A stretch of DNA of 5,369 bases from Giardia intestinalis (Eukaryota). Below the pieces are notes generated by a model. That model was given only the letters and a program-made list of their open reading frames with translations. It did no database searches and had not been told where the DNA came from. Made by a program: the position numbers and the translations under genes. Location: assembly GCA_000002435.2 (NCBI GenBank), contig AACB03000025.1, one strand, 5' to 3'. Positions 1 through 3,614 of the stretch are shown here, piece by piece (within the stretch, counting starts at the first letter, position 1; every line of letters begins with the position of its first letter).

Positions 1-372
1 GTGGGTTGCGTCGCTGCATGAGAGGCACATCCCCTTCGAGTCACCGGCCTCTCTCTAGTGAAGTGCGTCTTATCGGAGGTGCACTCTTCGGCAGTAAGGC
101 ACGCTCCCGATTGCCCAGCTGCAGACTCTGGCTTTAGATACCGTCCCTCTTTACAGCCAGTGCACTTGTCGGCCTGGTTCGTCATGGCGTTCTCGGTGCA
201 TCCGTCGCAGCTGGAGTGGCACCCCGGCGTGGCGGCGGGGCATTTCCCGTTCTCTGGTGGTGCGCCGGTACTGCATCTAGCGCAGACATCATTCTGATCG
301 CATCGTTCACAGTTAGCATCTGAGCAAGAGAAGCACTGCGTACCTGCAGTATTAGGCTTTTGGCCTTCTGCA
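1..372 (-). other. Non-repeat C-terminal cysteine-rich (CxxC) region of the same CDS, open to the window edge. The conserved membrane anchor and tail expected for a VSP-type protein would lie beyond coordinate 1.
   Basis: Hand translation of the reverse complement of 1..395 in the repeat frame gives no stop codon and 16 Cys in about 125 aa, mostly as CxxC (CFSC, CERC, CARC, CDGC, CTGC). Confidence 0.75.
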
Positions 373-3300
373 CACTTCTTGCACTCCTTTGCGTCGGAAA
401 CGCTGTCGTCGGTGTAGTAGCCCGCGCTCCCCTGGCAGTCGACCGCGCTGACGCACGTCCCCGTCGGGTCGCTGGGATTCGTCTTCTTCAGGTAGGGCGC
501 GGCGCCGTTTGCGTCGCATTTGGTGCACTTATCGGCCGTTCCAGCACACGCCGTGCAAGGGCGTTGCACTTCTTGCACTCCTTTGCGTCGGAAACGCTGT
601 CGTCGGTGTAGTAGCCCGCGCTCCCCTGGCAGTCGACCGCGCTGACGCACGTCCCCGTCGGGTCGCTGGGATTCGTCTTCTTCAGGTAGGGCGCGGCGCC
701 GTTTGCGTCGCATTTGGTGCACTTATCGGCCGTTCCAGCACACGCCGTGCAAGGGGCGTTGCACTTCTTGCACTCCTTTGCGTCGGAAACGCTGTCGTCG
801 GTGTAGTAGCCCGCGCTCCCCTGGCAGTCGACCGCGCTGACGCACGTCCCCGTCGGGTCGCTGGGATTCGTCTTCTTCAGGTAGGGCGCGGCGCCGTTTG
901 CGTCGCATTTGGTGCACTTATCGGCCGTTCCAGCACACGCCGTGCAAGGGGCGTTGCACTTCTTGCACTCCTTTGCGTCGGAAACGCTGTCGTCGGTGTA
1001 GTAGCCCGCGCTCCCCTGGCAGTCGACCGCGCTGACGCACGTCCCGTCGGGTCGCTGGGATTCGTCTTCTTCAGGTAGGGCGCGGCGCCGTTTGCGTCGC
1101 ATTTGGTGCACTTATCGGCCGTTCCAGCACACGCCGTGCAAGGGGCGTTGCACTTCTTGCACTCCTTTGCGTCGGAAACGCTGTCGTCGGTGTAGTAGCC
1201 CGCGCTCCCCTGGCAGTCGACCGCGCTGACGCACGTCCCCGTCGGGTCGCTGGGATTCGTCTTCTTCAGGTAGGGCGCGGCGCCGTTTGCGTCGCATTTG
1301 GTGCACTTATCGGCCGTTCCAGCACACGCCGTGCAAGGGGCGTTGCACTTCTTGCACTCCTTTGCGTCGGAAACGCTGTCGTCGGTGTAGTAGCCCGCGC
1401 TCCCCTGGCAGTCGACCGCGCTGACGCACGTCCCCGTCGGGTCGCTGGGATTCGTCTTCTTCAGGTAGGGCGCGGCGCCGTTTGCGTCGCATTTGGTGCA
1501 CTTATCGGCCGTTCCAGCACACGCCGTGCAAGGGGCGTTGCACTTCTTGCACTCCTTTGCGTCGGAAACGCTGTCGTCGGTGTAGTAGCCCGCGCTCCCC
1601 TGGCAGTCGACCGCGCTGACGCACGTCCCCGTCGGGTCGCTGGGATTCGTCTTCTTCAGGTAGGGCGCGGCGCCGTTTGCGTCGCATTTGGTGCACTTAT
1701 CGGCCGTTCCAGCACACGCCGTGCAAGGGCGTTGCACTTCTTGCACTCCTTTGCGTCGGAAACGCTGTCGTCGGTGTAGTAGCCCGCGCTCCCCTGGCAG
1801 TCGACCGCGCTGACGCACGTCCCCGTCGGGTCGCTGGGATTCGTCTTCTTCAGGTAGGGCGCGGCGCCGTTTGCGTCGCATTTGGTGCACTTATCGGCCG
1901 TTCCAGCACACGCCGTGCAAGGGGCGTTGCACTTCTTGCACTCCTTTGCGTCGGAAACGCTGTCGTCGGTGTAGTAGCCCGCGCTCCCCTGGCAGTCGAC
2001 CGCGCTGACGCACGTCCCCGTCGGGTCGCTGGGATTCGTCTTCTTCAGGTAGGGCGCGGCGCCGTTTGCGTCGCATTTGGTGCACTTATCGGCCGTTCCA
2101 GCACACGCCGTGCAAGGGGCGTTGCACTTCTTGCACTCCTTTGCGTCGGAAACGCTGTCGTCGGTGTAGTAGCCCGCGCTCCCCTGGCAGTCGACCGCGC
2201 TGACGCACGTCCCCGTCGGGTCGCTGGGATTCGTCTTCTTCAGGTAGGGCGCGGCGCCGTTTGCGTCGCATTTGGTGCACTTATCGGCCGTTCCAGCACA
2301 CGCCGTGCAAGGGGCGTTGCACTTCTTGCACTCCTTTGCGTCGGAAACGCTGTCGTCGGTGTAGTAGCCCGCGCTCCCCTGGCAGTCGACCGCGCTGACG
2401 CACGTCCCCGTCGGGTCGCTGGGATTCGTCTTCTTCAGGTAGGGCGCGGCGCCGTTTGCGTCGCATTTGGTGCACTTATCGGCCGTTCCAGCACACGCCG
2501 TGCAAGGGGCGTTGCACTTCTTGCACTCCTTTGCGTCGGAAACGCTGTCGTCGGTGTAGTAGCCCGCGCTCCCCTGGCAGTCGACCGCGCTGACGCACGT
2601 CCCCGTCGGGTCGCTGGGATTCGTCTTCTTCAGGTAGGGCGCGGCGCCGTTTGCGTCGCATTTGGTGCACTTATCGGCCGTTCCAGCACACGCCGTGCAA
2701 GGGGCGTTGCACTTCTTGCACTCCTTTGCGTCGGAAACGCTGTCGTCGGTGTAGTAGCCCGCGCTCCCCTGGCAGTCGACCGCGCTGACGCACGTCCCCG
2801 TCGGGTCGCTGGGATTCGTCTTCTTCAGGTAGGGCGCGGCGCCGTTTGCGTCGCATTTGGTGCACTTATCGGCCGTTCCAGCACACGCCGTGCAAGGGGC
2901 GTTGCACTTCTTGCACTCCTTTGCGTCGGAAACGCTGTCGTCGGTGTAGTAGCCCGCGCTCCCCTGGCAGTCGACCGCGCTGACGCACGTCCCCGTCGGG
3001 TCGCTGGGATTCGTCTTCTTCAGGTAGGGCGCGGCGCCGTTTGCGTCGCATTTGGTGCACTTATCGGCCGTTCCAGCACACGCCGTGCAAGGGGCGTTGC
3101 ACTTCTTGCACTCCTTTGCGTCGGAAACGCTGTCGTCGGTGTAGTAGCCCGCGCTCCCCTGGCAGTCGACCGCGCTGACGCACGTCCCCGTCGGGTCGCT
3201 GGGATTCGTCTTCTTCAGGTAGGGCGCGGCGCCGTTTGCGTCGCATTTGGTGCACTTATCGGCCGTTCCAGCACACGCCGTGCAAGGGGCGTTGCACTTC

Positions 3301-3614
3301 TTGCACTCCTTTGCGTCGGAAACGCTGTCGTCGGTGTAGTAGCCCGCGCTCCCCTGGCAGTCGACCGCGCTGACGCACGTCCCCGTCGGGTCGCTGGGAT
3401 TCGTCTTCTTCAGGTAGGGCGTGTTGCCGTTTGCGTCGCATTTGGTGCATTTTTTCCCAGTTGAATCGCATTCAGCGCAACCATCGATCGATGGACTGCA
3501 TGCATCAGCCAGTGCGACTGCAAAAATCAAACCAATTCCTACCAACATTGAGGCCAGAAGCTGGCACAGCACCGCTCTGGTTTGCATTAAGAGGCGCACG
3601 GGATCCTGCTTCAT
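1..3614 (-). CDS. Cysteine-rich secreted/surface protein with about 15.8 tandem 65-aa CxxC modules, partial at the 3' end (C-terminus lies beyond coordinate 1). It resembles Giardia variant-specific surface proteins (CRP170/vspA6-like 195-bp repeat family). The reading frame is interrupted by three 1-nt homopolymer contractions (about 560, 1044 and 1728), so this is either sequencing error or a pseudogene. Start ATG at 3614 (MKQDPVRLLMQT...); alternatives at 3587 (MQTRAV...) and 3662 (MCPRF...). The TTG at 3710 used by the ORF track is unlikely.
   Basis: The minus-strand translation has a hydrophobic N-terminal stretch (LCQLLASMLVGIGLIFAVALA) followed by DACSPSIDGCAECDSTGKKCTKCDANG..., then identical 65-aa units with 8 Cys each (CTAC, CTKC, CKKC pairs). 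Third codon positions in this frame are strongly G/C (gac gca aag gag tgc aag aag tgc aac gcc cct tgc acg gcg ...). I hand-translated 395..1 in the same frame (codon first base at coordinates congruent to 2 mod 3). It stays open and cysteine-rich: DAKECKKCAEGQKPNTAGTQCFSCSDANCERCDQNDVCARCSTGAPPENGKCPAATPGCHSSCDGCTENAMTNQADKCTGCKEGRYLKPESAAGQSGACLTAEECTSDKTHFTRERPVTRRGCASHAATQP. The frame at 3614 (congruent to 2 mod 3) equals the frame at the left edge after the three -1 shifts. Confidence 0.78.
366..3452. repeat. Tandem direct repeat with a 195-bp period and about 15.8 copies, essentially identical at the nucleotide level. Three units are 194 bp because of homopolymer contractions. The terminal units are degenerate: 3421..3452 at the N-terminal end and about 366..372 at the C-terminal end. 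The array is coding, giving a 65-aa module repeat.
   Basis: The supplied ORF track shows identical 64-aa ORFs at exact 195-nt spacing (723, 1112, 1307, 1502, 1891, 2086, 2281, 2476, 2671, 2866, 3061, 3256). Translations are identical in three different frames (minus cysteine-rich, minus +1, plus antisense), which together require near-perfect nucleotide identity between units. The text itself repeats visibly, for example ...gcacttatcggccgttccagcacacgccgtgcaaggggcgttgcacttcttgcactcctttgcgtcggaaacg... every 195 nt. Confidence 0.97.
3507..3614 (-). other. Predicted N-terminal signal peptide (36 aa if the ATG at 3614 is used): MKQDPVRLLMQTRAVLCQLLASMLVGIGLIFAVALA, with cleavage before DACSP.
   Basis: A charged n-region (K, D, R, R) is followed by a hydrophobic core of about 21 aa and an AXA-like motif (ALA) immediately before the first cysteine-rich mature sequence. 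Codon positions were checked by hand: D of DACSP is at 3506..3504 and PSIDG at 3494..3481. Confidence 0.6.

Follow-up and report, generated by a model that had tools for sequence, protein, structure and literature searches.

The surface-antigen gene vspA6 (CRP170) in a Giardia contig: a 195-base repeat array with fifteen complete units

We analyzed a 5,369-nucleotide stretch of the Giardia intestinalis contig AACB03000025.1 (assembly GCA_000002435.2), which in its entirety is termed the window in the following. It almost certainly represents the promoter-proximal 3.5 kb of the gene vspA6 (also known as CRP170, vsp67 or GL50803_221693), carried on the minus strand, along with 1.8 kb of upstream non-coding DNA, and comes from a WB-like Giardia lamblia of assemblage A. 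The copy of the gene seen here has 15 complete repeat units, against 26 in the reference, and lacks single bases at four sites, most likely through errors of the assembly consensus. As vspA6 was cloned in 1988, before any other variant surface antigen of Giardia, and its 195-bp repeat belongs to textbook knowledge, the gene with its 195-base repeats is already known and its rediscovery is conceptually nothing new.

The repeat array and the identity of the gene

The most conspicuous feature of the window is a single array at 373..3449 on the minus strand, detected by Tandem Repeats Finder with a period of 195, 15.8 copies, 99% matches and a score of 6112, which is not attributable to chance. 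When cut at an anchor word, the array yields 15 complete units and one partial copy. Twelve of the complete units are base-identical at 195 nt each, while the other three measure 194 nt, each having lost one base from a 4-nt homopolymer; none of the 15 carries a substitution. The partial copy (155 nt; 3295..3449, minus strand) is the first, or 5'-most, in gene order and displays three substitutions, at 3422 and 3424-3425, which turn the motif GAAPYLKK, the epitope of the monoclonal antibody (mAb) 6E7, into GNTPYLKK. The array thereby holds 15 copies of GAAPYLKK and one of GNTPYLKK, and the repeats of the published protein likewise begin with CDANGNTPYLKK (PMC7332775). Hence, the array is real and extraordinarily homogeneous, yet not perfect, and as assembled it does not form an open reading frame (ORF). 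The module it encodes on the minus strand, NAPCTACAGTADKCTKCDANGAAPYLKKTNPSDPTGTCVSAVDCQGSAGYYTDDSVSDAKECKKC, spans 65 aa with 8 cysteines (12.3%) and three CXXC motifs.

These observations bear on an earlier reading made from the sequence alone, without database searches. It had proposed a perfect tandem array at 366-3452, which is within a few bases of the actual location, but its description of the units as perfect and base-identical does not hold, given that 12 of 15 are identical and that there are three deletions, together with the three substitutions of the partial copy. Its 65-aa, 8-cysteine module of the CxxC type was borne out. It missed that the array is coded on the minus strand, that three units carry frameshifting deletions and that the gene extends past the window. 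With respect to composition, the G+C content is about 64-66% in the array, the plus strand of which has a strongly negative AT skew, and 51-60% in the upstream non-coding DNA. A 66-nt piece of the unit found no match in the metagenome contigs of the Joint Genome Institute (JGI).

The assignment to vspA6 is carried by a residue-by-residue correspondence with the published protein. Müller et al. 2020 equate CRP170 with GL50803_221693 and print both its 65-aa repeat with the mAb 6E7 epitope GAAPYLKK and, in the supplement, the whole protein of 2,259 aa, ending in ...GLVGFLCWWFICRGKA (PMC7332775). The module of the window is identical to this printed repeat at 65 of 65 positions, as a cyclic permutation. 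Upon restoration of four bases, the frame-corrected translation from the ATG at 3662 runs for 1,222 aa with no stop, and it is an exact prefix of a sequence composed of the published N-terminal 86 aa, k units and the published C-terminal part, with k = 15; the length of the published protein demands k = 26. Every residue of the 86-aa N-terminus, of each repeat unit and of the 161 aa behind the repeats is thus identical to GL50803_221693 of Giardia lamblia WB (100%), the number of complete units (15 versus 26) being the sole difference. Inclusive of the tail of the last unit, the post-array part corresponds to the initial 161 of 483 residues that the published protein has after its last complete unit. 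Of the cysteine-rich, non-repeated region behind the array, the window holds the beginning (1..372, minus strand), which is identical to the published sequence once position 49/50 is corrected. The exact prefix match and the identity of the module establish as correct the link to CRP170/vspA6, which the sequence-only reading had offered.

Further support comes from the 5' end of the gene. The coding sequence occupies 1..3548 on the minus strand, with the start codon of the literature at 3548..3546, and is cut by the window edge at 1. A direct reading of the sequence places an initiator (Inr) element, CAATGTT, at 3544..3550 (minus strand), inclusive of the start codon; the same Inr is given in the vsp67 (A6) row of a published supplement (PMC2996952), and our alignment shows it to be invariant in three related loci. 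In the published description, the gene opens with 99 bp that precede 23+ copies of the 195-bp tandem repeat (PMC2996952), and in the window there are exactly 99 nt between the ATG (3548) and the end of the array (3449), in agreement with both the literature start and the leader length. This leader (3450..3548, minus strand) codes for 33 aa, MLVGIGLIFAVALADACSPSIDGCAECDSTGKK, and includes a short hydrophobic N-terminal stretch, which by analogy with the rest of the family is likely to be a signal peptide. The table entry for vsp67 (A6) lists a 195-nt unit in 25 copies, a position on chromosome 4 as the first in a linear array, 2,259 aa and 12.2% Cys (PMC2996952).

Several features that typify Giardia's variant-specific surface proteins (VSPs) are also present. 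Counted from MLVGIG, the window codes for 144 Cys in 1,183 aa (12.2%) and 53 CXXC motifs, and of the initiators TAATGTT or CAATGTT, which are found in many but not all vsp genes, the latter stands at 3544..3550. The MLVGIGLIFAVALA N-terminus aligns with annotated VSP N-termini, being identical to that of the protein P0005 over 38 aa and similar to those of P0002 and P0007. A database search with the leader, two units and the post-repeat part as the query returned ten proteins, all of which are Giardia VSPs. Nine of these contain the PF03302 domain, the exception being P0008, which is short and chimeric. The top hit covers half the query at 80% identity, and the array is found in none of the ten. 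Look-ups for an exact copy of the product of the ORF 1656..3662, and of P0005, came back empty.

Members of the vspA6 family have near-identical 5' regions and related repeat units, so that another paralogue, of the A6-S1 or A6-S2 type, has to be considered as the source of the gene. However, the unit occurs only about once in A6-S1, and that of A6-S2 is 201 nt long (PMC2996952), whereas here a 195-nt unit occurs many times over and the residues flanking it match GL50803_221693 without exception; accordingly, we regard a paralogue as highly improbable.

Several points nevertheless weigh against vspA6 as the source. The C-terminal hallmark of the family, a transmembrane anchor followed by CRGKA, lies outside the window, as about 320 C-terminal codons fall beyond position 1. 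Scans of the window fragment, a single module and the post-repeat part gave no Pfam hit above threshold and thus no PF03302, the model of which would mainly cover the region beyond the window; two sub-threshold hits, to T2SSG (E = 0.16) and Furin-like_2 (E = 0.42), were taken as noise. As assembled, with its four frameshifts, vspA6 is untranslatable. Its 15.8 units stand against every published figure (23+, about 22, 25 and 26), and the recombination by which the units would have been homogenized is a mechanism that we infer.

Reading frame and repeat number

Three of the four deletions lie within the array and shift the frame. In plus-strand order, unit 1 has lost one base from a run of G (G4 to G3, 559..561), unit 4 one from a run of C (C4 to C3, 1043..1045) and unit 7 again one from a run of G (G4 to G3, 1727..1729). 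The repeat unit has just three 4-nt homopolymers and none longer, which amount to 12 of its 195 positions; all three array deletions fall into these, one and the same event having affected two different units. Because each array deletion shifts the frame, the minus-strand ORF is split in three (1656..3710, 877..1890 and 488..1111), and restoring the three bases results in a single frame from upstream of 3662 to the window edge. The last ~50 nt remain out of frame relative to the relatives of the gene even then, as the unique 3' part, beyond the array, has a fourth one-base deletion at 49..51, where GAGAAGGCC on the coding strand becomes GAGAGGCC. It is apparent as a gap in the window relative to two homologous loci, both paralogues from the assembly GCA_000498715.1. 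If one base is restored after 49 or 50, giving THFTREKAGDSKGMCLSCSDATH, the last 17 codons become identical to the published protein. A 595-aa plus-strand ORF at 1677-3464 and the 64-aa ORFs that recur ladder-like on the minus strand are by-products rather than genes, because the repeat unit is free of stops in several frames.

We consider these four deletions as probably being errors of the assembly consensus or of sequencing rather than signs of decay, because each of them removes a single base, three hit the longest homopolymers and 1,222 codons are free of substitutions. Were they real, the window would hold a decaying, silent pseudo-allele of vspA6, a proposal in line with four independent frame-breaking deletions within 3.5 kb of coding sequence and with the ~75 partial vsp genes of Giardia (PMC2996952). 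Decay is, however, difficult to reconcile with the complete lack of substitutions relative to the published protein over that length, or with a spectrum restricted to one-base deletions, of which the three in the array hit the longest homopolymers of the unit and two recur as the same event. We therefore view a pseudo-allele as unlikely by a wide margin. Under the favored explanation, four frameshifts of the consensus would lead an annotator to split the gene or to call it a pseudogene.

The start of the gene poses a comparable problem for annotation. The minus strand is stop-free in the vspA6 frame over 3549-3797, and because of this the gene model starts at the upstream ATG at 3662 (MCPRFRW...), which adds 38 residues. 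A similar N-terminal extension is seen in the gene models of P0001 and P0003, from two related loci (L001 and L002, respectively). The extension is probably not translated, for three reasons: other VSPs begin at the methionine of MLxGI, L002 has a frame-breaking one-base indel inside the extension, and zero peptides have been reported from aa 1-74 (PMC7332775). Automatic gene models would thus append a spurious 38-aa N-terminus to vspA6.

Turning to the number of units, Adam et al. 2010 put the vspA6 repeat count at about 22-25 (PMC2996952), and where 22-26 copies, in a gene or transcript of 5.4-5.6 kb, were to be expected, the window has 15.8. This low count does not bar the gene from being vspA6, because copy number varies between alleles: allelic variability of repeat number has been reported for vspA6 and vspC5 (PMC2996952). 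The copy-number polymorphism predicted by the sequence-only reading is thus documented for this very gene, and its warning that the assembled count may be unreliable was apt, with 15 complete units here versus 26 in the gene model and about 22-25 in the count of Adam et al. 2010. Indeed, vspA6 makes for a hard case of assembly, its identical units leaving the copy number uncertain.

One possibility is that the 15.8-copy array represents an assembly collapse of a true array of ~23-27 copies, in which case the identification as vspA6 would stand and the copy number would be artefactual. Reads shorter than an array of identical units cannot fix their count, 26 units are present in the reference protein, the consensus is not fully polished, as is evident from its four one-base deletions, and Adam et al. 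caution about exactly such repeat counts (PMC2996952). Against this, the 3.1 kb array has been assembled into unique sequence on both sides, suggestive of spanning long reads, and variation in copy number among vspA6 alleles is on record (PMC2996952). A collapse therefore deserves serious attention, even though we incline against it.

The other possibility is that the tetraploid genome genuinely contains a vspA6 allele with fewer units, or one that has contracted in a particular isolate or clone. Both junctions of the array are exactly as in the published gene. Shorter, non-expressed alleles were reportedly described by Yang & Adam in 1994. Beyond the known variability of repeat number in the alleles of vspA6 and vspC5 (PMC2996952), nanopore data indicate that structural variants within isolates are enriched at the VSPs (PMC7048089). 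Conversely, a published allele with 15-16 units was not found in the literature consulted. Because the junctions are exact and the flanks unique on both sides, we mildly favor spanning long reads and a real count, and hence a genuinely short allele or contraction is, by a little, the explanation that we would choose. The more specific proposal that the 15-unit array is a genuine, previously unrecorded vspA6 allele or clonal contraction that was caught by long-read assembly is one we put forward tentatively, as quite conceivable while falling short of what we would expect.

Upstream DNA and related loci

The first ~360 nt upstream of the gene (3549..3912, minus strand) are shared across the vspA6 family. 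In an alignment of four loci, namely the window, L001 (9751-10112), L002 and L004, hardly any variation is seen in this 5' flank or in the signal-peptide codons, and the coding sequence diverges sharply just past the signal peptide. Homology of the flank with the paralogous loci L001 and L004 stops at about 3896..3912. Within the flank lies an invariant imperfect palindrome (3720-3743). That the 5' flank is better conserved than the gene itself is suggestive of a shared regulatory block or of gene conversion.

In the upstream DNA as a whole (3549..5369), no stop-free stretch exceeds 130 codons, and the short palindrome at 3720..3743 is the one repeat that was found. Its distal portion, the intergenic DNA at 3913..5369, is syntenic with the contig AHGT01000091 and has no convincing ORF, tRNA or Rfam match; there was no Rfam match anywhere in the window. 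That contig bears L002 (gene P0003), which, like L001 (AHGT01000100, gene P0001), is from a single Giardia duodenalis assembly, GCA_000498715.1, which we take to be that of the assemblage A2 isolate DH. The window at 3408..5369 is collinear with L002 at 8376..10369 and 92.4% identical to it over 2 kb, which identifies L002 as the syntenic locus. The VSP encoded there, P0003, resembles vspA6 in its upstream DNA and signal peptide, but it lacks the 195-nt unit, has a different, single module (CNPNDPSNKKYLKGGACV...) instead, and is only 83% identical in its 3' part. P0001 of L001 is like vspA6 in the ~360-nt 5' flank, the signal peptide, the architecture and the post-repeat DNA, which is 91% identical; it differs in having a single 155-nt copy of the unit (93% identical) in place of an array. 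The neighborhood of L001 is also unlike that of the window, with a gene for a TatD DNase upstream of P0001. P0001 is a relative of vspA6-S1 (vsp175, GL50803_137608), which shares the 5' flank, the signal peptide and the architecture with vspA6 but has a single unit and no array.

Taken at the level of these comparisons, vspA6 in the window looks like a mosaic of two loci that are separate in GCA_000498715.1, an appearance that agrees with the published recombination among vsp genes (PMC2996952). Amplification and homogenization of the unit may have occurred after the split of A1 and A2, in the A1 lineage; the presence in GCA_000498715.1 of one 93% identical unit in another VSP, and of none at the syntenic locus, is consistent with such an expansion.

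The gaps in the alignment with L002 are lopsided, with the window lacking bases in 30 and having extra bases in 5. The idea that the window might be riddled with deletion errors is the less likely one, given that the array has merely 3 deletions in 3,077 nt and that the protein matches the reference exactly. Most of the upstream gaps are more likely to be real divergence between A1 and A2 than consensus deletions.

Two further comparisons place vspA6 within its family. L004, a metagenome contig of 1,046 nt (scaffold_33407 of the European Nucleotide Archive entry ERZ28638705), has the 5' flank of the vspA6 family and the first ~95 codons joined to the unrelated C-terminal half of P0008, and is probably a chimeric assembly. 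The genes vspC5 and CRP136 parallel vspA6 in placing numerous identical cysteine-rich units behind a short leader, with allelic variation in copy number, but their units, of 105 nt and 120 nt respectively, are unrelated to that of vspA6 in both sequence and length. In all, 30 repeat-bearing vsp genes have been recorded, each with a unit of its own (PMC2996952).

The surface protein and the significance of its repeat number

The surface of the Giardia trophozoite is coated by VSPs (PMC2996952, PMC7332775), and in WB clone A1 the dominant one was identified as VSPA6 by mass spectrometry (PMC7332775). The 195-bp repeat domain of VspA6 is immunodominant (PMC2996952), and mAb 6E7, directed against GAAPYLKK, is cytotoxic (PMC7332775). 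The product of vspA6 is a type I surface coat protein that begins with a short putative signal peptide, continues through consecutive identical 65-aa modules of 8 cysteines each and a unique cysteine-rich region, and ends in a transmembrane anchor with CRGKA. The modules might together form an extended, disulfide-stapled stalk or ectodomain presenting a multivalent epitope; as each module carries the immunodominant GAAPYLKK, many copies of one epitope would be displayed.

An AlphaFold2 model of the last unit and the 105 residues following it is confident, with a predicted local distance difference test score (pLDDT) of 87.4 and a predicted template-modeling score (pTM) of 0.70, and consists of short beta-hairpins. 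A sequence search of the PDB gave no hit at E <= 1, and we do not assign a fold because a Foldseek search of the model against the PDB recovered no match at E <= 0.001. The best resemblance, a weak one, is to the furin-like repeats Fu1-Fu2 of R-spondin, in that both are ladders of disulfide-stapled beta-hairpins. With a TM-score of at most 0.34 on the query and a Pfam Furin-like_2 E-value of 0.42 it is not significant, and the likeness should be read as one of shape and nothing more.

Within the array, replication slippage or unequal recombination could be the process that keeps the units identical while changing their number. If the count of the window is real, it documents variation among alleles or isolates in the copy number of an immunodominant epitope. 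Should the 15-unit array prove to be a genuine, hitherto unrecorded allele or clonal contraction, one tetraploid Giardia line would carry, or rapidly generate, vspA6 copies that are ~11 units (2.1 kb) apart and have zero base substitutions. From such an allele, the rate at which unequal exchange proceeds in a surface-antigen gene could then be read directly.

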